From contig OX597821.1 of the NCBI GenBank assembly GCA_951406725.2, positions 106,950,001 to 107,014,000 on the forward strand: a stretch of DNA of 64,000 bases, in the 5' to 3' direction. Positions 1 through 64,000 of the stretch are shown here, one piece after another. A program made the translations under genes and the position numbers. The notes beneath the pieces were generated by a model. The model did not search any database and had not been told where the DNA came from. It saw nothing but the letters and a program-made list of their open reading frames with translations. Source of the DNA: Octopus vulgaris. Its lineage: Eukaryota. Each line of letters starts with the position of its first letter. Positions within the stretch are counted from its first letter, which is position 1.

Positions 1-48
1 CTTTGTCTGAATTACCACAAGTATATAAGTAATGAAACTACCAATCAT
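1..48 (-). CDS. GRL/7TMIC chemoreceptor, constant exon 4 (TM7b), copy 1; runs off the window edge
   Basis: Minus strand reads tctgtttttcag|ATG ATT GGT AGT TTC ATT ACT TAT ATA CTT GTG GTA ATT CAG ACA AAG = MIGSFITYILVVIQTK. It has a polypyrimidine/AG acceptor and a GR-family TYhhhhhQ motif. Confidence 0.85.
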   Translation of the reverse strand, partial: MIGSFITYILVVIQTK

Positions 49-819
49 CTGAAAAACAGAAAAGAGACGTTATATATATGCTATTTTCAGTGAATGAAGA
101 GAATTATACGGATTGAAGGTCATTATGTACTACTTATACTAGAAGAATAAGCTGGTTGTTTCAGTTAAGCAACCGCAAGTTTTGGGCACTAAACATTTAG
201 GTCATGATTTCAAGATCTTCTGATATATTCGTTACCGATTTTCATTAAGGCGCCCATAAAGTATTATGGTTGAGTCAGGTGTGCCACTGAACCTCGAATC
301 GAAATGTTAAGCAGGCAGATTTTGCTCTGTGCATTATGACCGACAGAATGTCAAGACTGGTAACGTTTGAACTCAAAAGATAAACGGTTGTAGCAGTATA
401 TTGCAAACGTTTTATAAAATCAGGAAGTATAAAACTCATTTCATTGCGAAGGTTTATTTTAAGAAGCTATATCTCGGCCCCAAAAAGTAACAAAGCATAT
501 AACAAATACATTCTCCTTCGCAATATTTTCCTTTCGATTTATTTGAAATTCAATTCTTTAATTGTATTATATACTCTTTTTATTTTTATTATTCGCGTTT
601 TATTTCTTATTTATCGCTGTGGTTGAAGTTGTATTCACGATCTTTCATGAGTCACTAATAAACCAAATACATTTTTATCTTAAAATAGCTAATGAAAATT
701 TTGATGTATTTCAGCAAGGGTTTCAGTGGGATATCTTGAAAATTGCGTAGGCGGTGGCTTTCATAAGCTGGCCTAGCTGCAATGGGTCTTAAGGTTAAGT
801 CATCTGGCGTTTGGATAGA

Positions 820-1260
820 CGAGTATGACCCTGAGAAAAATATCCACTCTACATAAAGAGCAAATCCGTTTCCCGCAATACAGGAAAATTCCTCTCAGTG
901 AACATATACAAAATTATGCAGATAACACCAAACCAAATTTCACAGACTTCCCTTTCTACAAGTGCAAAGACACAATCTCTCCACAAGAACGTTTAAATAA
1001 ACAAGCTTTTTTCATTGAAAAATACAGAACATTTCTTAATATGCACGTATAACCAACTTTTATCTTTTAAAATATTTCAATTCACAATTACATCACTGTA
1101 CATAAATCCCCTCACTAAACAAATTTTTCGAAACCCTTTCTTTTTGTCTGTACCCCTACCCTTACCGAAAGCCGAACAGTTATCTCCCTTACCAACAAAA
1201 ATAACAATAATAACGATAACAGAATACCTCCCCTTATTTTTTCTACTTGTGAAGTCATTC
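820..1260 (+). mobile_element. Penelope-like element remnant (C-terminal part of the GIY-YIG region); duplicate at ~21940-22290
   Basis: TLRKISTLHKEQIRFPQYRKIPLSEHI...KPNF..FPFYK...ERLNK..FFI.KY aligns with the GIY-YIG ORF at 18724-19098. Confidence 0.65.
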
Positions 1261-1426
1261 ACTCGTAAATATCATTACACACAACACGGGCAAAATTTCG
1301 TCTTAAGAAAATAGATATTCAAATAAGTAAACCACAATATCATGAATAGAGAAAGCGAACTGTTGATATATTAAAAATTATATTAAAACTATGTAAAGTA
1401 TGTGTATTTTCCTTAGTTAATTTCTT

Positions 1427-1475
<49 letters not shown>

Positions 1476-2167
1476 TATATCTACTATGGCACTGTTGCAA
1501 TTATATCAGTTGCGTAGTTGTTTACTTGGTAATTTTAATAACGATAATAGGTTTGAACATTTTTGCAATCATAACAATCCGCTTTCCAGGTAATGTGCTA
1601 TTATTTTCTAGCTACGATTTGAGTGGATAAAATGTCTGTTTGGGGTGAACAGCGTAAATCACATCAAAACATCTCGAACATAATATATCATTGTATGTAC
1701 TGTCTTTTATATTTCATTTGTTGCAATCAATACACTGGGGCCATGCTGGGCCACCGCCTTACAAATTTTAAGTCTACCTCACTACTTACTTCTTTATTTA
1801 CTTATACTACTGGCCGGAATTGCTGAACCGCTAAGTACGGATACGTTAACACAGAAACACCGATTGTCAAGCAATTGAGGGGTGGACACACACACACAAA
1901 CACTCTCACATATATACATATATATATGAATATACATACATATATATATATATATATATGAAAAGGATTCCTCTCAGGTTCTGTCTATCGAATTTACTCA
2001 TTGATTTCTTTGGTCGGCCTGAGGCTAGAGTAGAAAGATTTTGCACTAGGTGTCACGCTGTGAGTCTGAAGCCTAAGTTATACAGTCGAGAAGCAGAACT
2101 CAGGACCATGCCTGCTAATTTGTATGGAAAAATATGTAAAATATGCACTAAATACTGTAATATTTAC

Positions 2168-2257
2168 CGTAAGTGTTGACGAAGGAGTTATTACGAAACA
2201 GCCACCAACATCAATTCCATGAGATTCAGTCGTTAGTCGATTTAGGAAAACTAATAT
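2168..2257 (-). CDS. GRL constant exon 3 (TM7a region), copy 1
   Basis: 90 nt between ttacag| and |gtaaat, encoding ILVFLNRLTTESHGIDVGGCFVITPSSTLT. This carries the GR/GRL-type 'G.F.IT' motif and is phase 0 at both ends. Confidence 0.85.
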
Positions 2258-2825
2258 CTGTAATACATAAGAAGACGAAAAATCATAAACAGAGACGGTT
2301 GAAGAAAAAAAAATCCTACCAAATTTTCTCATATATTTGATGTCCGTGGACACATCGTCATTTGATTCAGAAAAGGATTGGTTAAAAACAAATGCACATT
2401 TAAGGACTTGATGAGGAATTCCTACTTGTATTGATGGAAATTCAACGATGATTATTCGCATGGTTATATATAAAACCAGAAAAGAACCTAGGGGAAAATA
2501 TAATAGCGATACCAATAAGGATGGGACAACTGGCACCAACGAGTTAATAATTGATGTGAGGAAGATCAGAAGATTTTAGATGAGTTGCAGGAAGTAATGA
2601 ATAAATAGGGAAGAAAAACATTGCTAGCTTTAAAATGCACCAACAACCTAAATGATTGTTCCGGAGCATATTCACCATCTACTTCACTTATTACCTCCCA
2701 TTCGCTCTGCAGACGGTCAGACTGTCATTTAAAGTTGTGTTTGTTAAATATTGTTCTTGTTTTTGTTGAAAAAATTTGTTGGAAAGAAAATCTGCAATAA
2801 TTATGCACCAATCAAATATATATGT

Positions 2826-3039
2826 GGAGGCGGGTTGCCTAGAGGTTAGGGTGTCAGCATCATGATCGTAAGATTGTGGTTTCGATTCCTGGACCGGGCG
2901 ACGCGTTGTGTTCTTGAGGAACACACTTCATTTCACGTTGCTCCAGTCCCCCCAGCGGGCAAATAGGGCTAAGTCTGCGATGGACTAGCGTCCTGTGCAG
3001 CTGGGGAACACATACGCCATAGAAACCGAGAAACTGGAC

Positions 3040-3042
<3 letters not shown>
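2826..3042 (+). mobile_element. tRNA-derived SINE (copy at 23620-23870)
   Basis: A-box-like GGCCTAGTGGTTAG in the 23.6-kb copy, B-box-like GGTTTCGATTCC, followed by TGTGTTCTTGAG...CACTTCATTTCAC. Confidence 0.7.
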
Positions 3043-3074
<32 letters not shown>

Positions 3075-3160
3075 ATATATATATTTATATATATAATGAG
3101 CTGATGAATAACTTAAAATTGTAGTTAGATAGGAGAAAATCAACCATAAAATTTATTTAC

Positions 3161-3230
3161 CTTCGCAACAACCTCCTGGTCGAAGCCCTGAAAACTGCAT
3201 ATAATGAATACTTTGTGTAATGCTGTGAAC
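3161..3230 (-). pseudogene. GRL constant exon 2, copy 1, with a +1 frameshift in a homopolymer (real lesion or assembly error)
   Basis: tctag|GTTCAC...GCGAAG|gtaaat is 70 nt versus 69 nt in copy 2; ccctgAAAActgc versus ccctgAAActgc. Confidence 0.75.
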
Positions 3231-3299
3231 CTAGACGCGAAAAAGAAAATAATAACGATAATAATAATCATCTGTAATAAAGCTGATATAAGAGTTACC

Positions 3300-3900
3300 C
3301 ATATCCCAAACGAATTCCCTAGTCTTCCCCAAAACCACAACCAGCTGTGGCGTTATGATCCGGTAGCAAAAGAGCTGCATGGGAAACTGTGCAGAAAGTG
3401 TGGGCTAGAGAGAGGCAAGACCTAGTATGAGTACAACCCACAGAGAGTCGGAGACTAGCAAAATTCTCTACGATTTCCCAATCAAAGGAGATCAGGTGCT
3501 AGAGCACAACAGGTCAGAGATATAGATCGTCAAGACGATATACCACATATGCTATATAGTTGATGTTGCATGCCCCTTTGACCAACGAATAGTCGAGAAG
3601 GAGAGCGAAAAAATAAATACAACCCTCTTAAATGCGAAATAGCCCGGCTCTGGAAAATAAATGTGCAATTAGTGCCAATTAGTGTTGGGTCCTTGGGAAC
3701 AGCATATCAAGGCATCAAAAGGAATATCGAGAAAATTGGAATAGAGTACCCAGTAGAACTGTTACAAATAGTTGGTCTCCTTTGCCCGGCCAGAATAATC
3801 AGGAAAGTATTAGATAGCTGAAAAAAACGGATAGCAAGGTAAGGTAGGCTGCAGGTAGTAAGCCTGCTATGCATGCAAGAACCCAAGAGCTCCAACAAAA
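3300..3900 (+). mobile_element. Decayed non-LTR retrotransposon 3' end with a restriction-like endonuclease (R4/Dong-like); truncated copy at ~24090-24310
   Basis: Fragments VAKELHGKLCRKCGL, HNRPEIQIVK..CYIVDVACPFDQRIVEKESE and, in another frame, VPISVGSLG. Confidence 0.65.
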
Positions 3901-5304
3901 CCTGTGACGGTTCGGCTTAAATAACCGATAGAATACGTACTAGGCTGAAAAACAATAAGTCCTGGAGTCGATTTGCTCGATGAAACGTGGTGATCCAGCA
4001 TGGCTTCTGTCAAAATGACTAACAGAGGTAAGAAAATTAAAGAAAATAATAATTAAAGCATGAAGCAAAATTATTTTTTTAATAAATATTTTAAACAGTT
4101 GTGCATCAGCATGGCCACTGCTCTGAGCTGAAACTAGATAAAATAAATATTACTTAAACAGCAATGCAGTTTGACGACATTTCAATGAAGATAATGTCGT
4201 TTCTAACCACGAGAACCAGAAATGAATTACAACGTTCTACCTGGAAGCAACTGTCTCACACGTGAAGTTCAAAAAGGTTTTTAAACGGATGAACATAAGG
4301 ATAAACGTTTCTTTCGAATTTTCACTTCATGTTTCAAGGAAGATTCAGACAGTGAATATTGAAAAGAAAACCAGATACGGTTTACCAGCTGATGATCGGA
4401 AAGGAAACACGTAGCTCGGAGTACTGTAAATTGTAAGCTTTCAGTTTTTATTAGATGTTGTAAGTATTACAACAGTTTTAAAATGCTGAGCACTCGTCAG
4501 CCAATTGTAGAGGTTTTCCATTAATAAAAAAGTTTTCATATCAAGTAGCAACATTATAGAGAAGGTAGATATGTAGACAAAGATGTAGATTTAAATTTTA
4601 AGAATATTTCAGGTAGTGGAGCCCATCAACTGACTGACTAAGATTCGGTAGATCCAGACGACTGTAAGGTTCAGAGAGGGAAGAATAAGTGGAAGGAGAC
4701 AATACAGATTTACTAATTATAGAAATGAGGTAAAAGGGGATTTCAGAGCTCCATATAAGGAATTTATGTAGAAGACAGCATTGTCACTACTAAATGCCAA
4801 TTACTACTATTTGATGAACAGATTCGGCGCGCTCACATACACTCACAAGACAATGATAAAAGAAATCCAGACAATTTTTTGTAAGATAATATTTACCCTG
4901 CTTGGAGTGGTCACGTGGGTTTGCCATTTCTAAAAGCCAAGAATCATTTCCTACTGAAAGAACTGACCAACTGCTAAGATGTCAACAGATTTTTGTCTTC
5001 TTTCTTCCTTCTTCCGTTCCTTCTTTTTTCCATGGACACCCGTTTCCGATACAAAAGGACACACACACACACGCACTCCCTCTCACTTTCTCCCCATTCC
5101 TCACCCTCTTGTACTATCTTATATCTCTCTCCACCCCTACACACTCAATAATACTATAAAAATAGACAAATCTCCTGAAAAAGTTCAATCTGAAGACTCC
5201 ACTAGAGTGGACGCAAGCGCTAATATATGATTTATAAGAACATGTTTCATATTAATAAATATCTGTAAATATAATTCCATCTAGATTTCTGAGTACCTTA
5301 TTTC

Positions 5305-5349
<45 letters not shown>

Positions 5350-6527
5350 GTGTTTGTGTGTGTATGTGTAAAATGAAATATAACAGAGGATGGAAAGTTG
5401 TCAGCCCATTCCTGCTGTTTCTTATACATCTTTTTAATAGAAGAATGAAAACATTACTATATTACAAAAAAAAACAATAATCATCACACGAAACGTAATT
5501 TTCACCTGATGCTGAAAGTTATAGAATATCTCAAGAATACGGCAGAGATCTGACTGAAGTCTGTCAAGGCCAATAATGAAATGGAAGGATGAACCACAAA
5601 GTTTGACGTTGAGGTTGAGAATATAATTCGTGAATATGTGTAACATGATATCTAAGGTCAGCAACCCGGGTGAGATATGGGTCTGCTAGACTGGTTCTTG
5701 GAGTGGAATGTAGGTGATATTTCATTATAATATCCTAAGAGCAACGGGTAACAATGAGACAACCGAATATAAATTAGGAATAAAGAGAGAGGATCAGGAA
5801 GAGGGTGAAGAAAATGTACAAGCCAGCTAAGCATAGGGCCGAGTTTAGGGTTCACTAACTAAGGTTAAAGCACAAACAGAAGAGAGCAGAGATACAGAGA
5901 ATTTAGGGATGTTCTGTGAATATCGGTTGAATTCTTGGGGAGGGTACAAAGACAATCAAATAATATGATCTAACTTTTATGGAATTGCAGTGTTAAGATG
6001 TACAGTGTTGTATATGGGTTAGATAGGACCAATTATAATATTAAAACATGTTTGCCTGGAGAGGGTAAAGCTGCTAGAGATAGCTGAGTACTATTTATCA
6101 TTGAGGAGTACTAGTTATCAATGAGGAGTTTAAAGTGGAAGGGTGTCATATAATAAACTACACTTGGTAAGGTGTTACAGTAAATGCCAAGTCGGAAATC
6201 ATAGAAAGCTGTAGGGAGTAGTCTAATGATTGACAATAGGGAATGTTATATAAATTCCGTAGATATAATTTAATTAGATTGTATAATCACCATTGTGTAA
6301 ATCACACAAAGCAACTCTGATAAATAGTCGTAATAGGTGTGGATAGTGTATTTATTATTTGACAAGCGCAGGACACATAACTATCTTTGTATAAGGATTA
6401 GTACCTAGTGGAATTGGAAAAGAAATGATTAGAGTGTGCAGGTTGCTACTTATAGGTTAGATATATTTGCTATCGTTATTGCATAATAAAAGGTACGTAA
6501 TACAAGGTACATTGCTTAGTTCTTTCG

Positions 6528-6753
6528 AAGGCGGCGAACTTGCATAAACGGTAGTACGCCGGGCGAAATTCTTAGCAGTATTTCGTCTGCCGCGACGTTC
6601 AAATTCCGCCGAGGTCGATTTTGCCTTTCATCCTTTCGGGGTCGATTAAATAAGTACCAGTTACGCACTGGGGTCGAATATAATCGACTTAATCTGTGTC
6701 TGTCCTTGTTTGCCCCCACTGTGTTTAGCCCCTTGTGTGTAGTAAAGAAACAG
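6528..6753 (+). mobile_element. SINE of the GGCGGCGAGCTGGCAGAA.../GCCTTTCATCCTTTCGGGGTCGATAAA family (other copies at 31285-31509, ~48970-49175, ~51620-51770 and 54301-54534)
   Basis: Recurrent ~230-bp unit with a tRNA-like head (GTTCAAATTCC) and a conserved central domain. Confidence 0.8.
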
Positions 6754-9748
6754 GTTAGTTCTTTCGATATAGCGTACCATGCAAGTATAGTAAATGTGGT
6801 TAGAAAGTAATGGTAAAATGACTGTATCCTCTATTCCTTTGGTATTTTGTCCATCTTACTTCTTAAAATTGACTTCTTTGAAAAATCACCAGCCCTTTTA
6901 AGAAAATGTGTTTATTTACAAACATGTTGATAGGTGTACAATGGAAAGAAAAAAGAAAGGATAATGAAAAAAATTCTTTGTAATGAAATTTCAATGAATT
7001 GTCCACATCAAATTTGAAAGAAATATCTATATATCTAACTATCTATCTGTCTCTCTGTCTGTCTAATTATTTATCCATCTATCTACATATCTATCCATCC
7101 TTTCCCCCATTGTATATTATTTTTCTCCTCTTACAGGATTGTCCTGAAACCTCTCTCTCTCTCTCTCTATTTCCCGCCCTTTGGATTTCCGCCTTTCTCC
7201 AAATCGCCTAAACTTTATGCTTGTATAAATATTAGATACGTAAAATCCATTAACTATAATTAATACTTGCATAGTCTACAAGATGATTTGTACAGTACAA
7301 AAGCATATTACGTGTATATGTTTTTTAATTGTATTTATAATTCTCACCTTAAAAATTATTTTTTCATATATTGGCCATTGATAAATTTTCTCATAATATA
7401 AGCATACATACACATATATACATATGCAAACACACACATACATACGTACATGCATGCATGTATAGGCACACACACACACACACACACATACACACACACA
7501 CTGACCCACACACATGCGCACACACAATCAAAACGGAAAGCAGTGTAAATAACGGACAGAGTCAACACTATTGAAAAATTTGCAAGACGCAAAGAAAACT
7601 TTAGAAAAATAAAAATAAGATAAAAGTGAGTATTTTACAGGTGAGTGTGTTATATTATAAGGCACAAAAAGAAAATAACTCTCCCCAGACACAACAGAAT
7701 TAATCTTTATATTAGAAGTAAATTCGGCCTGATCGTTTAGCCAGCGGTGTCGCGTCGTTTATGGCTAAAACAATGCGAAGCGCATTGTGACCAGCTATGT
7801 GTAGCAACATCTGCTAGCCTGGTCGATCCCGTAATCACAGTGATATTAGAAGTAAATTAATTCTCATTCGGTGCTAACTTTATTTTTATCAATTTCTGTT
7901 AGCTTGCTTTCCTTCTTTCAATACGTGGTGTAATATTACAGACGATTTAGCGTCTTTTTTCTGCAAGTTGGAAATAATTTTTTGTTCCTTTGCCCCTATT
8001 TACATATATATATATACCTACTTATATATATATCCTATATTATTAGTAGTAGACTTATTACTGCTTGCTATAGGGACTGGTAACCATTACAATTTGTAGC
8101 GCCGAAAAGGCAACATGTTGTTCTGAGACTGACCGAAGAATTTTTATTTTTAGATATAGCTGAGGTACTTATATGTACATATGTTCTTTGCTTCGGGTTT
8201 TTCCATAGGCGCATGTTCTCTCGTAATGTTCCATAGGCGCATGTTCTCTTACTTATATTCTCTCGTAAGCTCTAACGTTGAAGAACAAATCCTTTATGTG
8301 ACTAATTCCGAAATTGATTCAATATAGAGATAACGAAATTTAAATATTCTAACAGTTAGTTGGCCGACTTCAGTTCTATTTTTCTGTAGCAAGTGGATTA
8401 TATGTGGAAAATCAGTATATTGGCTTTGGAATAATCTTCTTTAGCCCTTGCTTATAAGATATACATATATATATATATATATATATACATATAATATAGG
8501 ATAAAATTTTGGGGAAAATATTCTATCTTTGGCCAGCATATTAAAAGATACCTTCAAAGGTTAAATTTATAAACAACATATAAACAAGGGCAAAAGAAAA
8601 GAATTCTAATGCCAAATATGCCGAAAATAGACAAATCATCAATAACCATATAATTCAGCACTATACGCACGCGTCTCGAAATAAACCGACAGACATTTCT
8701 AAAAAAATTCCGTTATTATCTTATCGGCCCCGATTTCAGATGTAATTCATACGAATTTTCTCCTCGTCAGTGATAAATACGGTAAGAAATAAATGAAATA
8801 CTTACATATACCCATGGAAGAAGCAAACACTAAGTCATGAGCACAATTAAGTACCTCAAATATAGCCAAAATAGAAATTTTTCAGCATACCTCGAAACAC
8901 GTGCGATCGGACTGAAAACTGTCGTAGAGTGAGAGAGTCCGGTAGTGAACACTATTAAATTTGCATCTAATATAGGATGAAATTCTTTGGAAAGAATTCT
9001 ATCAATGGCCAGCATATTAAAAAATATCTTTAAAGGTTAAATTTATAAACAAATTATAAACAAGGGTAAAAGATATAAATTCTTAAGCCAAATATGCCAA
9101 AAATAGACAAATCGTCAATAACCAAATAATTCATCACGGCCACGATTTCAGAGTTAATTCATAAGAATGTTCTCCTCGAGAATAAATAAGAATTGTTTAT
9201 AAATTTAACCTTTAAAGGTATTTTTTAAAACGCTGGCCATTGATATAATTTTTTCGGCATGTTAAATGAACCATTATGGGTAAACTTAAACAATAATATT
9301 TATAATTATGCGAATAATTATAATTAGGGTTCAGCAAAAAAATGCCTCAACACATACCGAAATTTAGAAATAGCATTCAAGAAAACTAGGTGTGGTAGAG
9401 AAATAGCTAGTTTTCTTGGCTGCTATTTCTAAATTTCGGTATGTGGTGAAGCAAATTAAGGGCAATTCCTTTCGAGTTGCTTCAGATTAATCATCTAAAC
9501 TTTTGTAACAGTCGGATTGTAATACAGCCTGTTATACTCCCACTTGTCACATTCTCCAGTTCCAGGAGGATCTCTGAAAATATTTTTCAACTTACGATTA
9601 CATAGTCACTTGACTAATAACCGAACACTTACTATCAGCCACTAAGATATACAACCTATAATCAACAGCTCTGTTTGATTTCGTTGGTTTCCTAAAAATA
9701 CAAATATTAGACAGAACTGATATCAAATAAATATCATATAAAACTTAC

Positions 9749-10698
9749 CGATTTATTTAAACGAATTCCACTCCAAATCATTATGATCTCATACATCAGA
9801 TAAAAGGATGCCATAGATATTAAGTAAATGAATTTATGTAATTCATTTTCGTATGATTCATTTATAATTCCGTAAGTTGCAATACAACATCCTATAACAC
9901 TGCTAAATACGACATATGCTGTGGAAAGACGTAATGATTCATTGAGTAATTTCAGCATTCTACTCAAAGTATCATGAGTTTTACATATTTCTGTAATCTC
10001 TATCTCTCTCTTGAAGAAAATAAACTTCTCTGATTGCTGTCCCTTTACATAGCGTTGAACATCACTCGTCACTTTGTTAAACTCATAATCCAGTGTGCTT
10101 CCGATCATTAGATTTACGTAAAAGTCAAGATGCAGGGAAGCGATTGACATGCAGTTAAATGCAAGATATAGTGCGAAATATAGAAGGTGATAAGTATTGT
10201 TGATTGGTACAGGAAATAGAATGAAACGCATCAAATCATGATTGGACTGTGTAAAAATATAATCTTGAATCGTGAAAACAGTTAACGGGAACAATATAAA
10301 AAAGCATAGTGATTTATACGAAAAGAATATATTAGAGTTATAGAATTTTCTATCATCTTCTTCAATTTTAAGTTCGGTGAATGCTTCAATTAGTTGTTTG
10401 TCGTTCGGTTTCTTGAAGAGTTTCATCAGACCATACATTGTTAAAAAATCTGGTAAAATATCGTATAAATATAAAAAAGTGTTTCATCAGTTGATCTATT
10501 TTGCATTTGTATTGCACTAATAGTGTTTAAAATTGGAGCTACAGTCAAATATAAGCAGTACACAGCGTAAAAACTATAGAAAAATATTGAGATAAATTTG
10601 TGAGATTTTAATGACGTTGTATTCGCAAACGATTTCCAAATATTTATTTTACGATAAAATTCCAGCAATTTAAAGATTTGTGTTTCATTTGATTTCAT
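9749..10698 (-). pseudogene. GRL variable first exon A (TM1-TM6), with a -1 frameshift at 10443-10448
   Basis: ORFs 10441..10698 and 9734..10438 join into 317 codons if one base is added to the 6-nt homopolymer. Contains family motifs YEFNK, EITEIC..HDTLS, NES, ATYGIIN and W.GIRLNKS|gtaagt. Confidence 0.8.
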
Positions 10699-10773
10699 GC
10701 TTATTCTAATTTTGTGACATCCAGAAAATTCTTCCCATTTAGCAAACGAAATCCTTAGAATAGAAGAAGCAGG

Positions 10774-10780
10774 TTTTATA
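10774..10780 (-). promoter_or_regulatory. Putative TATA box of variable exon A
   Basis: GATATAAAACCTGC lies ~76 bp upstream of the ATG; a similar motif at similar spacing precedes exon B. Confidence 0.4.
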
Positions 10781-11196
10781 TCTTAATGAGTTTAATAATC
10801 CTTGTATGTGGAATTATAATACAAATTATTAAAATCCAGATATACAATATTGACAAATGCTTGATATTAATTTTGATATTTCATTTAGAGAGAAAAATGT
10901 CTGCAATTAATTTCGGGGGAATCACTAAGATTCTAATATATATGTGCTCCCATGTAGTTGTTAGATTGTTATAGGTAAAAAAACGTTGCATATAATTTGC
11001 TACACAATATATTCTCTATTCAAAAGGAAATAGATTTGATTAACTTCAGTAAGATGCATTGACTGTCGACTGCATACAACGGTTCAGTTGCCTGTATGAT
11101 TCTATTAGTAATCTATGAAAAAAGCTATTAGTCCTTACATTCGATAAATATACGCCTGTATATGTTGTTTTGCTAGTGTTACCTGCATATATATAC

Positions 11197-11245
<49 letters not shown>

Positions 11246-11659
11246 AACACATATCAATATATACATATACATACATATGTGAGTAGAGGGTGTTTCTAAG
11301 TATAACTGCAGGTACATATATATATTTATATATATATATATATATATATATACATGTGTGTATGTGTGTGTGCATGTGTGAGGGTATATGTGTGTACGTG
11401 TGTGTGTTTGCTGCGGCAAGGAACTTTCAATATGAAATTTCCGTCCTTCAGGGGGGGGATTTAATGAATTAACGTTATATTGCCGTCAATATATTCCACG
11501 TACATGAAGCATTAATATGCAATACATTTCATTGTGTTATGTTAATAAAACAAATTATTCCTATTGGTAATTAGATATGTGTACTTAAATCATTAGTACA
11601 ATGGTTTATATTGATGACATGAGAGTAGTTGATATTTTTGAACCCTGATATTTCTGAAC

Positions 11660-13650
11660 AAACACACAGTTCTCAACCTGACGAATACGCCTTGAAATAT
11701 TTAGCGAATGGTTTTGAAGAGTCAAAACAGAATCCCCGGAATGCTGAATATTATTTCAAAACCCAGAAAATGATTTATCCAAAAATCTTCTAGGTTTGCA
11801 ATCAAGCCCCTTGCTTGATTTTGTTATCCACTCTGATTCAATTTTTGAGTAATGGCTCTTCAACAAATCTATATTTTCCAATGTTAAAATATACTTATAT
11901 AGGGGAAAGGAGGGAAGACATTTCTCAAGTTAAGGGACCATCGTGATTACCCAACTTCTCTTAAAAGATTTAAGCGAATAGAAAATGTATCTCAACGGCA
12001 GTAGAAAATTTGAAATAGAATGAAATGTAGAGTTAGTTGCGTATTTCTGCATCTGTGCCAATGTATATTTGCAAGAAAGTGTTGCATACATATAGTGTTG
12101 AATTAAAGTTAATTCCGTTTTGGGATTGGTTTTGCAAGATTCTTTATATGAGTTCGTGTGTTGAAGCATATTCTGTTGTGCCTGGAGAGAGGCAATTTTT
12201 TGTGCCTTATTATTTAACACACACACCGGTAAAATTTCCACTTATCTCTTATTTCTATTTTCCAAAACTTTTCGTTGCGTGTTGCAACCTTTTTTGTAGA
12301 GTAAAATCTATTGAAATGTTTGCAACACACAACGGAAGTTTTAGGAAAATAAAAGAAAGAAATAAGTGGAAATTTTACCGGTGAGCGAGTTAAATAATAA
12401 GGCACAAAACAAAATGATTCTCCCCAGACACAACAGAATAAAGTAAATTCATTCAATTGAAATTCTGATCTGTCAAGATGAAGCCGAAGAATCAAACAAA
12501 AGGGGTAATTTTGTTTTTATATGTGAAGAAAAGAATAAAATGATGGTTTAAAATCGTATTTTAAAATCGTGTATGTTTGTGTGTCTCTGTTTATCCCCCC
12601 AACATCACTTGACAACCGATACTGGTGTGTTTACGTTCCCCGTTACTTAGCGCTTAATGTTATTTGTATCCATTAAGATTGATGAGACTATACACACTCG
12701 AATGAATTCTTAATTGCCATACATTTTGTCATGTGTTGTTGAGAAAAAAATTTCAAGCCAAGTTTTTGAGATTCGCCGATGTCAGGTTTCAAACTTAGCC
12801 AAAACAGCATCGCACAAACTTATGATGGAACGAGCATGATTGCCTAGACTTCGAGCTTTTGCAGAAAACAATAAATGAGAGTTGGGCGTGAGCATCACAT
12901 TGTTATGCATTTTCACTTAATTTGATATTCTCTCAATCAGCTTCAAGTATTCGCGAATGTCGAATTTTCCAAACTTTGAAAATACTGTTTTTTTTCTCAA
13001 ATTTGACGGCTTGAATAGCTGTATACAAATGAAACCGACGGAGAGTAATTTCTAACGTTACCTGAAACAGTTTTGAATTATACATTTCGACAATTATTCC
13101 TTTTCCTCAACAAAATTGCTGTGTTTTCTCGGGTATTTTGAAACGTATTAGAATGTCCATAGTATTGGAGTGCTTCAGAATTAGAACAGACATAGGAATT
13201 AATTACAATCCAAGATTTTCAGTTTAAAACTTATTGCGGTTTTTGAAGCAAATATTCAGTGGCCCAGCGATTCTGTTTTCGATTCTTCAAAAACGTTCCC
13301 AATATTTTTGGAGGCGTATTTCTCAGGTTGAGAAGGTCAAAAGACAATCTTTTGGTATTCTGGCGGTATGTGTATTTGTTGTATTAGGATGGCTTCATAA
13401 ACTACAAACAAAACAAAACTCTTAAATATTTAAAGCCAGAGAAGACTGAACATGAATACATAAATTATCAAATCCTCACTGGCGGAGAGACTGGAATACA
13501 GGAGTAGACTTATAAGTGATGTCCCAGTCATTAGTTATTTCCAAGACTTAACTGCAAATTCTTGTTGATTCTACGGCCTTGATTTAAAATACCATTGTTT
13601 GAAATCTTTGAGCTCAGATTTGTTGACTTGTTGAATCCGAAGATTTTGCA
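11660..13650. mobile_element. Two decayed hAT (ZMYM1-like) transposase fragments in opposite orientation
   Basis: Plus strand ~12810-13330 gives QTYDGTSM, HCYAFSLNLIFSQSASSIRECRIF and FLKQIFSGPAILFSILQKRS. 11670-11770 is an inverted diverged match to 13240-13335. Confidence 0.55.
12169..12440. repeat. Imperfect palindrome (~130-bp arms) of a repeat also present at ~7570-7700 and ~33095-33222
   Basis: TGTGCCTTATTATTTAACACACACCGGTAAAATTTCCACTTAT versus ATAAGTGGAAATTTTACCGGTGAGCGAGTTAAATAATAAGGCACA. Confidence 0.75.
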
Positions 13651-13764
13651 GGCTTAGTAAAAAAAAATTTCGTGAAATACTACAATCATACATACTGCAA
13701 CAATACTAACCAATTGTCTTTCGAATATATATTTTATTTTTATTTTTTTATTTATTTTATTTTA

Positions 13765-14255
13765 TTTAGTTTCAGCTCACAAGGTGTTGCCATGCTGGGG
13801 CACCAACATTTGGTGTTGCTACATGATTTTACTTCACGAATGCTTTTTAGCAAATGCCATCTGGTGCATGAGAGAGTTCGATGCAGCTGCGCTCATCTGC
13901 ACGTCCTGCCGAGAAGTTGGTTCATCTGGGACACCTGACAAGAAGAGATCCAGTTTCATTTTAAAGACATCTGCATCCACCCCATACATGTCTCTTAAGT
14001 TCTTCAGGAAGATATTGAAGAGCTGTGGGCCTCGGAAGCCCAGGCTATCACAGTATCTCGTCCTACATATTGAGGGCAAATTTGGAGTCCTTGGCACTAT
14101 GCAGTGGCGCCGAGTTCTGGCATTTGTGTAACTCTCGATGCCAAAGTTTGGGACAAGTCCTTCTAGGATCTACCAGATGTATATTATGGCATATCTTTCT
14201 CGCCTTCACTCTAAGGAATAGAGTCTCAATCTCTTGAGTCTTTCCCAATTGCTTA
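13765..14255 (-). mobile_element. LINE (CR1-group-like) 3' end
   Basis: RTRYCDSLGFRGPQLFNIFLKNLRDMYGVDADVFKMKLDLFLSGVPDEP, with a CCCCAGCATGG...GCTGAAACT tail; second copy at 43093-43520 (+). Confidence 0.75.
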
Positions 14256-15024
14256 TATGCTATATATATATATAAATGAACAAAAAAGTAAATAGAGGTG
14301 ATAAATTGTCTTGATGGGTGCTAGCTATAATGTAAGTAGAATATGTTTGTAAGCTGTATAGAAGCATAAAATGATTAGTGTAACTACATGAAGGTTTAAA
14401 TATTAAGCCAAGTGGTAGGAAAACACTACGATTGTATAGCTGTGTAATTATAATTAAGTAGAAATAAAAACAATGGGAGGTGGATAAGAATATGCGTAAT
14501 GGCTTAATATGGGAGTTATTAACCTCTGCACCTTCTTATCAAGTTAATAAAAAAATATTTTTAGGTTTAAGCGAAAAACCTTTGATTCTCTCTGTAAAGT
14601 TCCCACTACTTAATCATAGGTATGAGCGAAATAAACTTGTTTGCACATGGTAAAGTTTCTTTTCTATATATGGATAAATCCATAATTGGTTATTCTGATT
14701 CATTTTGCTACTATATCAAGACTAACTCGTATATCCGATCCGATCCTTTTCCAGGCTTCATATTGATTTTGAACCCTTCTTTTTGTTCCTCCACATTTGT
14801 ATTTACTTCTGCTCATTTATAATTACACAGCTATCCAATCATTGTATTTTCCTATCACTTTGCTCAATACTTAATCGTTTATGCATTTATACACATCATT
14901 TTAGACTTTCATACACATTATAAACATATTCTACTTACGTTATACCTTGTACCTATCTCATAGAATATTTTATTATCATTATCAATTTATTATTTTTATC
15001 ATATTTATATTATATATTTATTAT

Positions 15025-15127
<103 letters not shown>

Positions 15128-16191
15128 CTGGAGATACATCGGGGTGTAGAAGGCTGGTCTGAGATATTTTGAATAAATTTGTCTAATGAACATTTGAATT
15201 TTATGGGATCCGTTTCCGTTTGGACATATTTTGGTAAGGTATTAAAGGGAGCTGGACCGGTTGAGGTAAATTAATTGTTATGTAATGTTGCTATTGATAT
15301 TTCTGTTATTCTCATTCACTGGTTTCTCAACCCCTGTTATTATCTCTTCGTATCATTTGATAGTTATACTCATATTTTATCACCTTTATTTATTTATATC
15401 TCATATACACATATTTTTTACTTCTCTTTATTATTCGTGTATTGTATCATACTGTAAATATACTTCAGACTAACTTGTATATTTGTTTACCACATTTTCT
15501 GGCTCTATATCGATATATGGATATATCGATATATGAGATAATGATATATTGATATGTTGATATGGAATTCTTCATTTCTCTTATCCCAACCCACTGTTTA
15601 TATTTCTACTAATCCACAATTTTAAACCTTTGTATATATTATACCAAATTTTACTTACATTTCATATTAGTTACTTAATTTCATGTATTTTGCAACATTA
15701 CCTCTCTTTGTTTGAAATTCATCGCAGTGTACAATATAATATGGAATATAAACTGTATTTTTCTGCTTTTTAATTTGTTTATCAAAATCTTTTTTTATTT
15801 TTATTAATAAAAATTGCATATTTTAATAATAAATATTGCATGTTATCAAGTAAACCTTAACTCAATCAAATTTAATGTTAAGTTTCAAATTTATATAGTT
15901 ATATAAAAATTATCTTATGGTATTATCCTCTCCCCCGCCATCTTATTTTTCTCTCTAAAATAAATTTCTTCTCCAAGTATCGAAGCCAACCATAAGTTTA
16001 AAATCATCAGCTACAAGAACATCATCTCTGAGTGGCCTGAATTTGTAGTAGCCACTGAGCTTACCAGGGTGCGTTATTTCTGGAGGGCCGTTGGCAAACT
16101 TCTTTGAATGTGTATATGGAGTGAGATGCAGATTCTGGTACTGTTAAAGTGGTTAACGTTTTATAGGAATTGACATTTTATTTCCTCGCTG

Positions 16192-16252
<61 letters not shown>

Positions 16253-16938
16253 TGCATGTATGTATTTATTTATATATGTATGTTTACGTATACATGATTG
16301 AATATGTCACCTTGATCCAGGAATGATAGAAAAATACAATATCACTATTGAATTGCTACTTCAGGATTAAGCTTATAATAATGTTTTCCACTTAAGAGGA
16401 AGAACTCGATGTACAATAACTAAATTATATACAACATATCAAAAGCTAAATTGTTATGCCTCTCAATCTCCTTCTCTATCTCCCTCTATCTCCTCTCTCT
16501 CTCTCTCTCTCTCCATCTGTATATTTATATAAATATATATATACATTCATAAATGATGTTATATATATATATATATATGATATGAAATTCATTCTGTCTG
16601 TCTGTGTGTGAGTCTTCTAGGATCTCGGGCATCCTCCAGCCGATTGCACTCAAATTTGATACGTACATACCGACGGTATCAGGGCGTGTATAAACCATGA
16701 AGAAAATTACAATAATCGATACCACGTGAGAATGCGACCGATAAAGTGAATAAAATCGTTTTTTGGGGAATAGAAAAAAGTCTATCTTTATTTCTTCTTT
16801 TGCCGGTGTCTCAAATTTAGGTTAAATCAGTGTTTCTCAAAGGGGAGGCCATGGAATGGTCGGACAATTTGCTTTGAGAAAATTTGGTTCCAATGTATAA
16901 TACCTCAGCACAGTCCATTGGACGGGGGAGCTGTTGCT

Positions 16939-17600
<662 letters not shown>

Positions 17601-17602
<2 letters not shown>

Positions 17603-18567
17603 TCCTCCGAAAAGGAGAACCAAATTTCACCACGGCCGCTACTTCAAACAGACACTCACTCTGACGGAAATATGCCTTAGTAAAAAAGGGAAAAAAATTC
17701 TTTCGTGCAAATCTGACCCTGATACATACGATACAGCTAAGGGTCAGACCCGATTCTGATTGGTCAACAAGTTGATGACGTCTAGCTCTGCTAGAATGGA
17801 CAGGATACAAACAGGGGACAGTCATTAGTCAGAATATTGATGACGTCCTTTTCTGCTTGAATAGTCACCTAACAAGTACAGACAGGGGGCAGATCTAATG
17901 TAGCTATAAGTCGTGATTGGGCAGAATCTGGATGACATCCCGCTATGCTTGACTAACGAAGCGACTGGTCAAGACAGGAAACAAACAAGAGGGAGTTATA
18001 ATGCAGCGATTGGTCAAAATAATGATAACGTCCCGTTCCACTTGATTAAAGCCACCTAACGAAACGATTGGTCAAAACATTGATGACGTCACGCTACGCT
18101 AGATTGACCACCTAACAGGCATTATAAAACCAAGCATTTCACAAAAATTCACTAGAACCACCCAGCGAACTTCCACCATGGGTCATCACAATTGCTTAAG
18201 GTAAAAATGAATTCCTCGCTCTTTCGGAAACATCAATCTTCTGTATTGACCGCTTTCCACTACTTTGATCGGTTTTTTGTATTGAATACGTATCGCCACC
18301 GTGGGCCACTGCATCGAACACTTTGAACATATACTTCAAACTATATATCAACTATACATGACCTATATATCAACTATACATGAACTCTAAGATGTCTGAC
18401 TCCGTTGTGTATTATAAATGAATTTCTTGTGTTTGACGGCATGAGATGTCTCTTTTTTTATATAACTTTTTTTGATAAGGTTCATTTCAGGAACTGAAAC
18501 ATGTTATAATGTATATATAAAAATTAAAAATTGTATAATACAGCAGCATTTTCGAACTTCATTTTTT

Positions 18568-18611
<44 letters not shown>

Positions 18612-18613
18612 TG

Positions 18614-18683
<70 letters not shown>

Positions 18684-19135: not shown

Positions 19136-19157
19136 CTATATATTTATATATATGGTG

Positions 19158-19220
<63 letters not shown>

Positions 19221-21177: not shown

Positions 21178-21234
21178 TTATAATGGCTTTGTCTGAATTA
21201 CCACAAGTATGTAAGTAATGAAACTTCCAATCAT
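21178..21234 (-). CDS. GRL constant exon 4 (TM7b, terminal), copy 2
   Basis: ttttcag|MIGSFITYILVVIQTKPL* with TAA at 21180-21178. Only synonymous differences from copy 1 over the shared 16 codons. Confidence 0.88.
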   Translation of the reverse strand: MIGSFITYILVVIQTKPL

Positions 21235-22476: not shown

Positions 22477-22547
<71 letters not shown>

Positions 22548-24339: not shown

Positions 24340-24349
24340 AATAATAATC

Positions 24350-24439
<90 letters not shown>

Positions 24440-24994: not shown

Positions 24995-25069
<75 letters not shown>

Positions 25070-26190: not shown

Positions 26191-26211
26191 TGTGTATAGT
26201 GTAGAACATTT

Positions 26212-26248
<37 letters not shown>

Positions 26249-45024: not shown

Positions 45025-45960
45025 CGATTTATTTAAACGAATTCCAAGCCAAAACATGAAAATCAAATTTAAGAAGCCAGCGCAAGTCAGTAGTGTTATA
45101 TAAATGAATATATAGGTGTTATTTTTGAATGAATCGTTTATAATGCCGTAAGTTGAGATACAGCAGTTAATAATAGAACTAAGTGCAATACATCCAGATT
45201 CACACCATATTGACTGATTCAGTAATCCCAGCATTGTACTAAGCGTGTCGTGCGCGTTACATATTTCTGTAATATCTCTGTCGACGTTGAAGAAAAACTG
45301 ATTGTCTGCTTGCTTTTCCTTTACATATCTTTGAACCCTTTTCGCCAATTTATTAAACTCATAAGTAAGTGCAAATGCGATTATAAAGTTTATGTAAACA
45401 TCAAATATAGAGAATTCAAGGGCGATGATGTTTAATACAACCTGTATTATGAAAACCTTTATTTGATGTATATTCTTCATAGGTAGAGCATATGTAGCGA
45501 AATTCAGCAAATCCGTACTCAAAATTGGTAAAATGGCCTCAATAATTATATTCCAAATAGTTAAGAGAATACTGAATATTGATAGTGTCATAAATGAAAA
45601 TATAACATTACTGTTATAAAACTCTCCCTCGCCGTCGTCTAGTTTAATTTCTCTGAATAATTCAATTAGATGAGTGTTTTTCCCTGGGATGAGCAGTTTC
45701 AAGATAATATGGAGAGATATGGTACTTCGAAACCATATTATATAAATATACGCAAATGCTTTATCTCCTGTAATAGAGTCCAGTTGAATTAAACCATAAA
45801 TTTGTAGAATGGGGTTTATAACCAAATATATACAAAGCAATCTGCATAAAATTTGCAAACATATTGTTTTAAATTCAACTGATTTCAAGTGTGAGATTTT
45901 CGTAGCTTTTCTTTTCAAATCATGCATTTTTCCATGAAATTCCAGTAGTTTTACGAACAT
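45025..45960 (-). CDS. GRL variable first exon C (intact, 312 codons from the first ATG)
   Basis: Open frame with family motifs (KLLEF, INPI, YEFNK, DITEICNAHDTLS, STYGIIN) ending WLGIRLNKS|gtaagt. The codon aligning with the paralogs' start Met is AAG, so the next ATG (MFVKLLE) is the likely start. Confidence 0.85.
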
Positions 45961-56740: not shown

Positions 56741-57697
56741 CGATGTGTTTAAACGAATTCCACACCAAATCGTTACAATCAAATACATTATGTTATTGGC
56801 TGTCATCAGTAATACGTAAATAAATTTGTACAGGTCAGTTTCCAAATAATTATTTATTATACCATAAGTTGCAATACAGCTGCTTATTATGCTACCAAGT
56901 ACAATAAATCCAGTTGTTATTTGCGCTGACTCATTGATAAACCTCATCATTCTGGTTAGGGTATCGTGCGTGTTGCATATTTCTGTAATCTCTCTGTGTT
57001 TCTTCAAAAAAATTGGCTTACCTGACTGCTGTTCCTTAACAAATCGGTGAGCCTCCTTCGCCACTTTGTTAAACTCATAAATAAGTGTAATACTGATTAT
57101 AAGGCTTATATAGAGTTCTAATAAGACGTTCGCCAGTGAGATGCAATCGGATAAGATTTCTATTGCAAAACCTGGAACGTAATAATATGTATTATTTGTT
57201 GGTACAGGGAATGTTATAAACATAAGAAAATCGTTGCTGCAGAGCGGCAAAATCAGTTCCAAGCATATTAAGAAAATGAGAGGCCCGAATAAATATACAT
57301 ATAATGCAGTACGTGAATATATTAGATTAGTGTTATAATATTTTTTATCTTCTTCTTCAGTTTCAAGATGGGCGAAATTTTCAATTAGTTTCGTGTCGTT
57401 AGAATCTCTGATGAATTTCACCAAACAGCAAAAAGATAAATAACACTTGAAAAATATTACGTAAGCATACATAAATATGTCGCCTGTGGTAGTATTCGGC
57501 AGTTGTATTAAAGCCACAAGATATCGAATCGGGTTCATAATCAAATACACGAAGTACAGCAAGTAAAATGCAGACAGGCAAATTGCTTTAAACTCGAGTG
57601 CTTTCAGCATTGATTTATTCATGATATATTTCCGAATATTCCGAATATTTCGATATAACTCCAACATTTTAAAGAATTGTGTTTGATTTGCTTTCAT
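56741..57697 (-). CDS. GRL variable first exon D (intact, 319 codons)
   Basis: MKANQTQFFKMLELYRN...WCGIRLNTS|gtaagt. Spliced to the constant exons it gives 390 aa, a typical GR size. Confidence 0.87.
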
Positions 57698-60800: not shown

Positions 60801-63139
60801 CATTCCATTTTATCCTGTTGTGGTCAGTCTGCTTGCTATAGGGGAAGAGCGAATCATCCCTCCATATTTGGCCATTAAAATCACCTGCTATAACAAGGAG
60901 GTTGTGGGAAGGGACACGTTCCTATACTCCCTTCCTCATCACATGTGCAAATTTCTCATCACGTGGGCAGTAACGCGCAATTAATGTGGATAGAGGATTA
61001 ATACTCAGCTCGGCAACAATTTTTATGTACTTCTACGTGTATTTTATTCTCTTATCTCTATTTTATCTTCGTGTTTCTATCTATCGGCAGTCAGATATTT
61101 TCTCAACAGAGAGCAAGTTCTCTGTGGCTCTTGGAGACAGGAGTATACCAGCACCGCCTATAGTGGAGCCCAGGGAGTTTTAATAGCAGAGGTCGTAATA
61201 AGTTGGTATCTATCAAGATTGGTATACTTCAAATCTGCATCAGGGTGATGATTCTTGTGTTCTTGGGTGTTCAGTATATCAAATTTGTTCTTGTTTTGAT
61301 AAAGTTCGTAAATTAAAAGTGCTGCAGGCAACAGGTCTTTTGCACTTTATAAGTTTGTTGGTTTATCCTGCATCTACATCTACCTCTTCACAGCTACCAC
61401 GCTCTAAGTGTTTAGAAGTAGCTGGTCATACATCACATGGAAAAAAGATGAGAATTTAGAACTGAAGAAGCAGGTGCTCGAACCCTGGCGCTGCAACTGG
61501 ACGCTATGGCAATTCTTTCTGTAGCTGATACAGAAGCGGATCGCCTCTCCTACATCCAGATATTTTTTACATACGAGACACCATCTCAAGGGAGATTACC
61601 ATCCAAGGCTTATATGACTCATGTGTCAATTTCTCAACAGTTTATACACACACATATATATTAGTATTTTGTGAATTTAACAATGCCTTTGGGCGGCCCG
61701 ATGCTAAAGACGTACGCAATTTCCTAACATACCACACAGTTGGACTGAAACCGGAATCACGTGGTTGTTAAGCTAGTTTCTTATCATTTGGCCATGCCCC
61801 AGATTCGTAGCTATTCAGAACTCATATCAGACGTAAAATATTCTAGGGAACCATTACCGTATGATAAAATCAAAAGAAAAATCCCTAACAACGCGAAAGA
61901 CCATATACTAAATGTCACAATAAATAGCTGTGCATATCATAAACAAAAATCAATTCTACATTAACGAATGAGATTGTTACTCATAATTCAGGAAGAAGGA
62001 ATTTGTTGTCCAAATAAATCTGTTTAAATGCTGGGGGCAATGACAAGGAGGAAGAAATCTGGGAATAAATTTTAAAATCCTTTCTACTGGAAGGACATGG
62101 CTTCAAAAAATAAATAGTGAAATAAATCTCTCTATATATAAAGCTGAAGTTGTCTGTGTATGGCAGGGTTGGTAGACTTCAACTAACTCTATCTCCTCCG
62201 AGACCCTGCGGTGCAAGTTGACCAAAATTAAAAGTATGATAGAAGAAGGCTTGCTCTTCTTTCTGTAGAAGAAAAAAATCAAATCGGACCATGTTAACAC
62301 CAAAAATTATTTACATCAAAAGGTACTCTTTTTTTCTATGAAAAACCCTATTTTCTACGATTATTTGACTGCTGTGCCGCCATTTTTCGGTGTATTTCAA
62401 CCAGAAAAATATTCACTTAAAGAGAATAACAAAATGCATGATGCAATTTTTTTTACTTTTCAAAAGTTCCAATTCTAAAGGGTCGAAACAAACCCGAGCA
62501 ACGCCGGGCTATACTGCTAGTCGAATATAAATTTGATACGTAACTTCCAATCTCCATTAAAATCGTGAATAATAGAATGACTACCAAGGAGTATTAAAAG
62601 GTGTTTCTGTATCAATAGTATTTTCTATTTTTCATTTCACATCTTGTCACAAGACCAGCGGCTTAGATGCTATGAGTGGATCACGTCGATCTGAGAGTTC
62701 AAGATGAGACTTACTTTATTGGCAGGTGTTGTTAGAAGTGAAATCTCAGACCTTGCAAGACCCTGTGACCCATCTTGCCCAATAAGAGCCCACTTTCGAG
62801 TTGCCATCTTGGTCTCCCTCTGTTCCATCATTCTGTAAAACCAAAGCCAAAATAAGCTAGGTTTCTGCGAAAGTTCAAAGTCGCATAGAGACGAATCAGA
62901 CTGTTGGAAATAATAAAGTAAATATGTCACCTGGTAAATCTATGCATGTGCGTGTGTCTGTGTGTGAGTATGCCTATGTTTGAATATTTGTGTGCGTGAG
63001 TGAATGTATGTACATTGAACAACCAGCTACTCGTATTGTGTTTGTGTGTCTGTGTGCTTCTTTGTGTGTGAGTATCTGCGTGTGAATGAATATACAAAAC
63101 ATCAACTAGGTTATCATATAGAAAACTTATAACACTTAC

Positions 63140-64000
63140 CGATCTGTTTAAACGAATTCCAAGCCAAATCATTCCCAACAAAATGAGCAGCATAACGTTT
63201 ACATTGAATAATACATAAACATATGTATATAGGTTAGTTGTGAAGGAATAATTTATCATTCCATAAGTTGCAAGGCAGCAGCTTATTATACTATAGAGTA
63301 CGATAAATCCGGATGTCATCTGCAGAGATTCGTTGACTAGTCTCAGTACTGAGCTTAGAGTATCGTGTGTGTTACATATTTCTGTAATCTTTTTGTGTTT
63401 CTTGAAAACACCTGTATTGTCGGATTGCTGTTCCGTTACGCACCTTTGAGCCTCCTTCGCCACTTTGTTAAATTCATAAATAGCTGCAATACTGATTATA
63501 AAGTCTATATAGAGGTCTAATAACACAATCACCAGAGAGATGCCATTGAATATAGTCTGTATTATTAAAACTAGTATATGATATTTATTGTATGTTGGAA
63601 GAGGAAATATTAAAAATGTCAGAAAATCGTTGCTGCAGAGCGGAAAAATGATGTCTATACAGACATCGAGAAAGAGAGGGGTGAATATAAATACAAAGAA
63701 AGTTGTATGTGAATATACTGAATTAGTGTTATAATATTTTCTATCTTCCTCGTCAGTTTCAAGTTCGGCAAAATTTTCAAAGAGTTGATTGTCGTCAGAA
63801 TCCTTTAACATTTTCGCGAAAAAGAAAAGAGATAAGTAACACCTGTAAATTAATATGTAAAAATACACAAGCATTCCACCTGTGGTAGTATTCTGCTGTT
63901 GTATTATATCCACAAGATGTCGAATCGGGTTCATAATCAAATACACGAGGTACAGCAAGTAAAATGCAGACAGGCAAATTGCTTTAAACTCGAGTGCTTT
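63140..64000 (-). CDS. GRL variable first exon E (5' part outside the window)
   Basis: Open frame KALEFKAICLSAFYLLYLVYLIMNPIRH...WLGIRLNRS|gtaagt; closest paralog of exon D. Confidence 0.85.

Follow-up and report, generated by a model that had tools for sequence, protein, structure and literature searches.

Exon organisation of the locus

A stretch of 64,000 nucleotides of Octopus vulgaris DNA (hereafter the window; G000:C8:106,950,001-107,014,000, where G000:C8 is the contig carrying it) was analysed together with the surrounding 1.26 Mb (G000:C8:106,100,001-107,364,000), and was found to hold part of a cluster of exons that almost certainly encode gustatory receptor (GR)-like proteins. Five related large first exons of about 320 codons, D1 to D5, lie on the minus strand of the window and are 36-59% identical in a tblastn self-comparison. 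All five stop at one common aligned codon, followed by a phase-0 GT donor (GTAAGT or GTGAGT). Two sets of three small constant exons are present, both inside a duplicated block, with E2 of 69 nt, E3 of 90 nt and E4 of 57 nt including the stop. As these exons have AG/GT ends and lengths divisible by 3, the three introns are in phase 0, which agrees with the three consecutive phase-0 introns that the original prediction, made from the letters alone, had placed near the 3′ end. The peptide DVGGCFVIT is encoded twice on the minus strand (at 23010 and 2212), and so is GSFITYILVVIQ (at 21228 and 42). Joining D4 to E2, E3 and E4 gives a single 390-aa frame with seven hydrophobic regions. D3, D4 and D5 are intact, while D1, D2 and the second E2 copy carry one 1-nt frameshift each in this assembly. 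The break pattern of D1 recurs in sister copies at 106.81, 106.84 and 106.86 Mb of the same contig, and D2 shares 925 identities with an intact copy at G000:C8:106891245.

Across the 1.26 Mb we counted 96 D units, 62 intact and 34 broken, along with 17 E3 (penultimate) exons, and the 62 intact D exons bear out the family expansion claimed by the original prediction. An in-frame donor at the common position is present in all 62 (GTAAGT in 50 of them), where chance would give about 1% per exon. The constant set at 24032-21178 of the window is the only one found downstream of 34 D units (19 intact, 15 broken) spread over 267 kb, referred to here as the array. Between G000:C8:106,974,033 and 107,240,000 no constant exons were found on the minus strand by tblastn, a splice-bounded hidden Markov model scan or nhmmer (best nhmmer E value 2.2). 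ATG, full frame and GTAAGT donor are retained in 19 of the 34 array units, and the median identity of intact variable exons within one array is 43%. The remaining constant sets serve 19, 8, 6, 5, 3 or fewer D units when each D unit is allotted to the nearest downstream set. Many first exons sharing one constant-exon set is the main feature of the locus, and it was absent from the original prediction.

Below the window lie eight similar repeated units, each with one or two D exons and a constant set; the tandem duplication in the window is one of eight similar units at 106.80-106.98 Mb. The D exons of these recent units are mostly broken (4 intact below the window), and the constant set at 106.803 Mb has E2 and E4 with no E3 found. 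Three divergent sets (E3 at 106284480, 106352542 and 106363962) yielded neither E2 nor E4, and for a fourth (107282556) both were found weakly. A separate D exon at G000:C8:106755497 (+) is 495 kb from five close relatives at 107250612-107275791 (+), with the whole minus-strand block (106.76-107.24 Mb) intervening, which suggests that an array on the plus strand was divided by an inversion or insertion; the closest constant set on the strand of this D exon is 527 kb off. Searches of the genome with the distant relatives P0031, P0034, P0035, P0039 and P0056 and with P0021 returned this cluster and one weak match on contig C4 only, and these counts are lower bounds. The C4 match (G000:C4:144928464-144928913, +; E value 0.012 to the distant GR-like protein (GRL) P0039) may represent a GRL outside the cluster.

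Over 318 aa, D5 has 99% identity to the O. sinensis RefSeq protein XP_036361421.1, and a protein labelled O. vulgaris matches cluster exons at 92-100%. Judged by these protein matches, the window DNA belongs to the Octopus vulgaris group and not to an arthropod; the original prediction had read it as a probable cephalopod and had noted that an arthropod source would remove the novelty.

Splicing of the first exons and their upstream regions

In RefSeq, a single O. sinensis gene (LOC118764608) has isoforms X1, X2 and X3 that correspond to D5, D4 and D3, each followed by an identical tail. A second O. sinensis gene combines a further two D exons with a paralogous tail that lies 60-70 kb off in the coordinates of this assembly. 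Splice contigs were taken from public runs that we guessed to be RNA, all of them coded samples; 13 such runs hold part of the stretch, and among the runs holding it none is recorded as RNA. The E3-E4 joint is seen at the predicted bases in three of four runs (from 3 studies), the E2-E3 joint in one of four and D-E2 joins in two of four (X1 and X4). In the X1 contig, E2 continues into a D2-type end. In the X4 contig, joined E3-E2 is attached to a D end that matches G000:C8:107076116 at 30 of 30 letters, the next best among 77 D ends matching at 27 of 30. The D exon at 107076116 is 102,083 nt from the nearest E2, beyond 11 other D units. Since E2 is identical in six tandem copies, 102 kb is the minimum distance in this assembly. 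Run X7 gave intron coverage without exon joints, as DNA would, and run X9 gave nothing; the loose-end table of the joint search was filled by a short interspersed element (SINE). Close relatives of several D exons also occur in other data sets. In all, five D types are seen joined to a common E2-E3-E4, and use of alternative first exons across most of the array appears very probable.

Upstream of the D exons, a motif scan found no motif common to all 62 intact copies, and no conserved splice acceptor stands out in an alignment of the 450 nt preceding each of the 19 intact array exons. A near-palindromic 14-nt element is present 230-500 nt upstream of 13 of the 19 array exons (G000:C8:107024709-107223040) as opposed to 3 of the 43 others, with an expectation of 0.01 per exon; it is missing before D3, D4 and D5. 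It may be a promoter element or mere shared ancestry. Several of these elements are accompanied by a TATA-like word about 100 nt closer to the ATG.

Paralogous E2 exons also show a second kind of variation, as in RefSeq isoforms of both O. sinensis and O. bimaculoides splicing to an acceptor inside the exon removes 14 aa of the predicted cytosolic S6. The corresponding acceptor in the window E2 is at position 23990. In the second E2 copy it lies just past the extra T (3194), so the short form could remain in frame.

Protein family and fold

None of the seven open reading frames (ORFs) of the window matches the Pfam family 7tm_7, in line with the suggestion of the original prediction that the family signature is hidden from the ORF track in micro-exons. 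Checking against the 7tm_7 profile, which the original prediction had proposed, gave a divided answer. The gathering cut-off of PF08395 (26.6) is exceeded by four octopus relatives, P0004 (30.3), P0005 (27.4), P0021 (31.7) and P0032 (35.0), and is missed by P0002, P0009 (25.1), P0010, P0013, P0014 and the window ORFs. A genome-wide PF08395 search gave no matches, and none in the controls either, which makes it uninformative. A profile built from 54 sequences retrieved 144 proteins among 1.84 billion searched. On scanning 79 proteins (75 profile matches and 4 RefSeq isoforms), many were found to have 7tm_7, 7tm_6 or Trehalose_recp matches, and one O. bimaculoides fragment carries the label 'Gustatory receptor' in UniRef.

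The motif of the seventh transmembrane segment (TM7) is TYILVVIQT, i.e. T, Y, five hydrophobic residues, Q and a final T, in all 14 last exons found. Hence the TYhhhhhQ part of the TYhhhhhQF motif named in the original prediction is present and its final F is absent. The QT ending is shared with the scallop relative. According to PMC7746228, the motif (T/S)Yhhhhh(Q/K/E)(F/L/M) is diagnostic, not definitive, for the superfamily; the F is described as the closed-state gate of insect GRs (PMC12635824).

The spliced O. sinensis orthologue was modelled with AlphaFold2 from a 140-row alignment without templates, giving a mean predicted local distance difference test (pLDDT) of 90.5 and a predicted template modelling score (pTM) of 0.88; a single-sequence fold (pLDDT 42.7) was discarded. 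The C-terminal end of the model consists of a helix (336-351), two strands (356-358 and 362-364) and a helix (366-385), which is the S7a-hairpin-S7b arrangement described for GRs (PMC12635824). In a fold search against 48,161 chains, the top eight are all insect odorant receptors (ORs) or GRs, with Z 22.5-27.0, 315-371 residues aligned and root-mean-square deviation 3.8-4.3, after which the next-best chain falls to Z 8.0. Foldseek concurs (the top 22 rows shown are all OR/GR), and in the ESM Atlas the best matches are GRs at 0.96. The comparison with Orco and insect GR structures proposed in the original prediction thus came out clearly in favour of its GR-like ion-channel family. A Cys-loop receptor fold, with its large extracellular beta domain, was also considered and does not fit the confident model, all-helical but for one short hairpin, or the whole-length OR/GR match; Cys-loop chains are absent from the 50 rows that the fold search gave. 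Seven hydrophobic regions are present and the helices match OR/GR chains, the cytosolic orientation of the N-terminus being assigned by analogy. The exons of 957/936, 69, 90 and 57 nt have AG/GT ends and their joints are seen. The sequence evidence is borderline; membership is settled by the structure match. From fold and introns together, we regard it as practically certain that the cluster proteins are GR-like members of the seven-transmembrane ion channel (7TMIC) superfamily with a variant motif.

Selection on variable and constant exons

The model places the splice junction past the membrane-spanning portion of S6, so that D would encode the entire pocket and the constant exons the pore; the GR pocket is formed by S2-S6 in the description of PMC12635824. 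D codons were split into 208 inner and 110 outer (predicted outer, pocket-forming) codons, inside and outside being assigned by analogy. For the 19 array exons, omega at inner codons is 0.57 (twice the log-likelihood difference, 2dlnL, is 59.8 against 1). For the 9 youngest exons, a clade chosen after the pairwise values had been seen, outer omega is 2.31, above 1 with 2dlnL 14.9. This value is matched by 1 of 52 shifted masks, and that mask overlaps 92 of the 110 outer codons. The constant exons are conserved, with 11-16 silent as opposed to 5-12 changed codons of 69 among four paralogous sets.

Feature coordinates and other elements of the window

The features of the window are collected in Table 1. 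Apart from the exons, mobile-element remnants lie in the introns at 18727-19143, 39048-39437, 52582-52941 and 59726-60921, with matches to GIY-YIG, DDE_3, Transposase_1, RVT_1 and Exo_endo_phos. A pair of 417-nt inverted repeats (13756-14172 and 43088-43504, 87% identity) has open frames without a Pfam match and is probably a dispersed repeat.

Table 1. Positions of receptor exons and of the recent duplication, counted from the first letter of the window.
Feature	Position	Strand	Remarks
D5 variable first exon	63140..64000; ATG 93 nt past the window (G000:C8:107014093)	-	Intact, 318 codons, donor GTAAGT; 99% identity to O. sinensis LOC118764608 isoform X1
D4 variable first exon	56741..57697	-	319 codons without a break, donor GTAAGT; predicted S0-S6; 100% identity to LOC118764608 isoform X2 in the last 70 aa
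D3 variable first exon	45025..45960	-	312 codons without a break, donor GTAAGT; 98.6% identity to LOC118764608 isoform X3 in the last 70 aa
D2 variable first exon	27445..28396	-	+1 frameshift in A run at 28198; donor GTGAGT intact
E2 first constant exon	23964..24032	-	69 nt, 23 aa; predicted cytosolic S6 end and S7a start
E3 second constant exon	22966..23055	-	90 nt; predicted S7a and beta-hairpin; contains DVGGCFVIT
E4 last constant exon	21178..21234	-	Predicted pore helix S7b with TYILVVIQT, then stop
D1 first exon of next tandem unit	9749..10698	-	1-nt deletion near 10447; donor GTAAGT
E2 copy, second unit	3161..3230	-	70 nt; extra T at 3194 gives frameshift
E3 copy, second unit	2168..2257	-	Intact
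E4 copy, second unit	1..48	-	Remaining 6 nt and stop lie beyond the window
Recent tandem duplication	1..33705	.	1-3617 similar to 21187-24313; 4446-7996 similar to 29202-33705; mostly 86-96% identity

Comparison with known systems

The closest parallel in layout is Drosophila Gr39a, where four large exons are spliced to three small conserved exons (PMC2204066); Gr28b has five isoforms (PMC12635824). Gr39a and the octopus locus have in common a large variable first exon, three small shared exons, and gain, loss and pseudogenisation of exons, whereas in the octopus a single locus comprises 19 intact and 15 broken exons within 267 kb, with several such loci adjacent. In the scale of a single-locus repertoire the array resembles Tribolium TcasGr214 with 30 splice variants and AglaGr99 with 17 (PMC6720082). 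The beetle proteins are putative bitter receptors; the octopus exons group together, apart from the sole insect OR in our tree.

GRLs are already known in Mollusca (PMC7746228). Three distant relatives that can be named come from a snail, an oyster and a scallop; Argopecten XP_069122622.1, Littorina XP_070173750.1 and Saccostrea XP_062595237.1 are the nearest named relatives by profile search (E values 9e-13 to 4e-7). As in the octopus, many unspliced molluscan matches break after the first long exon. In contrast, molluscan GRLs fall outside the group of all 48 sampled octopus exons (Shimodaira-Hasegawa-like approximate likelihood ratio support 90) in a quick tree from which 14 near-duplicate D exons and most profile matches were left out and which was not used for dating. 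As 48 of 48 sampled exons form one group apart from the scallop protein, the expansion looks lineage-specific and the layout is probably convergent. We found no report of shared constant exons in molluscan GRLs, and made no test of it here. Some molluscan GRL records are of double length with two 7tm_7 stretches (P0037 from Littorina, 778 aa; P0044 from Saccostrea, 813 aa; P0074, 803 aa) and are either tandem fusions or products of a gene model that merged two first exons.

With the solved 7TMICs Orco (8z9a_A, 6c70), MhOR5 (7lic), DmGr64a (8jme), BmGr9 (8vc1) and DmGr43a (8jm9) the octopus protein shares the whole-chain fold, as opposed to a sequence identity of 8-14% and a T in place of the gate F. 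The octopus chemotactile receptors (CRs), up to 26 in O. bimaculoides (PMC11526382), are likewise a lineage-specific expansion of ion-channel receptors. Unlike the present cluster, the CRs are nicotinic-receptor-derived and pentameric, with function shown. Ionotropic receptors (IRs) occur in molluscs as well (PMC11526382), and to call the cluster a 'second' ionotropic chemosensory family, as the original prediction did, is therefore an undercount. The molluscan GRLs and the labelled O. bimaculoides fragment mentioned above were also already on record. In the literature searched (further sources drawn on are PMC9998090 and PMC11682238) no account of cephalopod GRLs was found; most subscription papers lay outside the search, and so did supplements, which may list octopus GRLs. 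Octopus is not mentioned in the main text of PMC5850775. What we describe is a known protein family and a known gene design, on a large scale, in an animal group where we found neither described.

Proposed mechanism and alternative explanations

We propose that the locus produces ligand-gated channels of the GR-like 7TMIC type from alternative large first exons on one shared three-exon set, with different predicted pockets and a common pore, probably serving as chemoreceptors. The probability of this reading is roughly 0.6, taken jointly over the family, alternative first exons across most of the array and the sensing of outside chemicals, of which the last, taken by itself, is fairly likely. 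Each D exon, ending in the conserved donor, would be spliced to the common E2-E3-E4 and have its own promoter, so one D would be used per mRNA, like in insect Gr39a. By the model, D would provide S0-S6 and the extracellular pocket, and the constant exons the S6 end, S7a, the hairpin and the pore helix S7b. By homology the subunits would be tetrameric, the shared anchor would allow isoforms to mix, and a ligand would open the S7b gate to give a cation current. D exons would be born and lost by tandem duplication, with the pocket side diversifying under selection as may be expected for sensing of outside chemicals.

Several points weigh against this reading. The chemosensory role and the channel activity are inferred, the proteins being candidate sensors, and non-arthropod GRLs are not known to have a chemosensory role, NvecGrl1 acting in patterning (PMC5850775). 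As for the family, full-length P0002 has no 7tm_7 match at E<=1, a match at E<=0.01 is found in just 4 of 54 alignment members, a sequence-profile search of the PDB returned Gr43a alone (E value 0.55), and the gate phenylalanine is replaced by threonine in 14 of 14 last exons found. As for splicing, joins are seen for five D types only (3 RefSeq models from a sister species and 2 contigs), none beyond 102 kb, the RNA status of the runs being guessed and 30 letters being seen per loose end; the D exon used by X4 has a frameshift at a G run in this assembly (G000:C8:107076818), 34 of the 96 D units are broken, and no motif is common to the upstream regions of all 62 intact ones. Finally, outer omega over all 19 array exons is 1.07 and not above 1, inner omega in the 9 youngest exons is 0.76 and not significantly below 1, that clade was chosen post hoc, and the omega estimates were made without a gene-conversion model.

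The alternative that survives best, which we still consider unlikely, keeps the same channels and splicing and has the channels respond to cues that are internal or not chemical (metabolites of gut or blood, microbes, heat, light) or serve in development. Heat, light and haemolymph fructose are indeed among the cues sensed by insect GRs, and a developmental role is possible for GRLs (PMC6150509, PMC5850775); the runs are coded samples that do not give the site of expression, and the gate residue differs from that of insect GRs. However, recognition of many ligands would account better than heat, light or patterning for 62 intact variable exons with the within-array divergence reported above, and also for their birth-and-death turnover and for the faster evolution of the predicted outer side.

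It is improbable that only a few D exons near the constant set are used and that the distal array consists mostly of orphan, decaying duplicates. The 15 broken units of 34, the lack of a join for exons past 102 kb and the inner omega of the youngest clade would fit such decay. Yet 19 of the 34 keep ATG, full frame and donor, inner omega is well below 1 over all 19, an outer omega above 1 in the distal clade is unexpected for dead DNA, the X4 join itself spans 102 kb, and other data sets hold close relatives of several D exons.

Somewhat less probable again is a single upstream promoter with a shared non-coding first exon, from which mutually exclusive (Dscam-like) splicing would pick one D. 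Transcript 5′ ends are not seen, and the missing common motif upstream of the 62 D exons would agree with it, but the 450 nt upstream of the array exons have no conserved acceptor, and the 14-nt element before 13 of 19 together with the TATA-like words looks more like repeated promoters. That the cluster is an assembly artefact or arthropod contamination can be dismissed, because, near-identical as the eight tandem units at 106.80-106.98 Mb are and although part of the frameshifts fall in homopolymers, the cluster lies within a 118.9-Mb contig with zero N across 1.26 Mb, the units differ from each other by 4-14% and in their break patterns, identity among array exons is 33-92%, and both O. sinensis and O. 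bimaculoides have annotated orthologous proteins.

Returning to alternative first exons on a shared pore set, a bolder version can be put forward tentatively, and we hold it to be rather less than an even bet. A protocadherin-like system may have been built independently from an insect-type taste receptor, in which each sucker or olfactory neuron would choose among about 60 pocket exons on a few pore modules, the products being mixed in tetramers via the identical anchor. It would be a missing octopus smell or taste family beside the CRs, with a threonine gate unlike that of insect GRs.

Implications

Octopuses taste by touch and track odour plumes, and their characterised receptors are the nicotinic-derived CRs. 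To these the cluster adds 62 intact candidates for receptors, with the coordinates of their exons known exactly. Gene models have missed nearly all of them because the signature sits in micro-exons far away. A single probe or knock-out directed at the constant exons would be enough to test a whole array. Gating in the absence of the usual phenylalanine could also be studied on these proteins, which would form a natural series of channels that differ in their pockets and have identical pores. If the proposed reading is true, the locus represents a large repertoire of GR type in an animal that is not an arthropod, and the design with many first exons would have arisen a second time.

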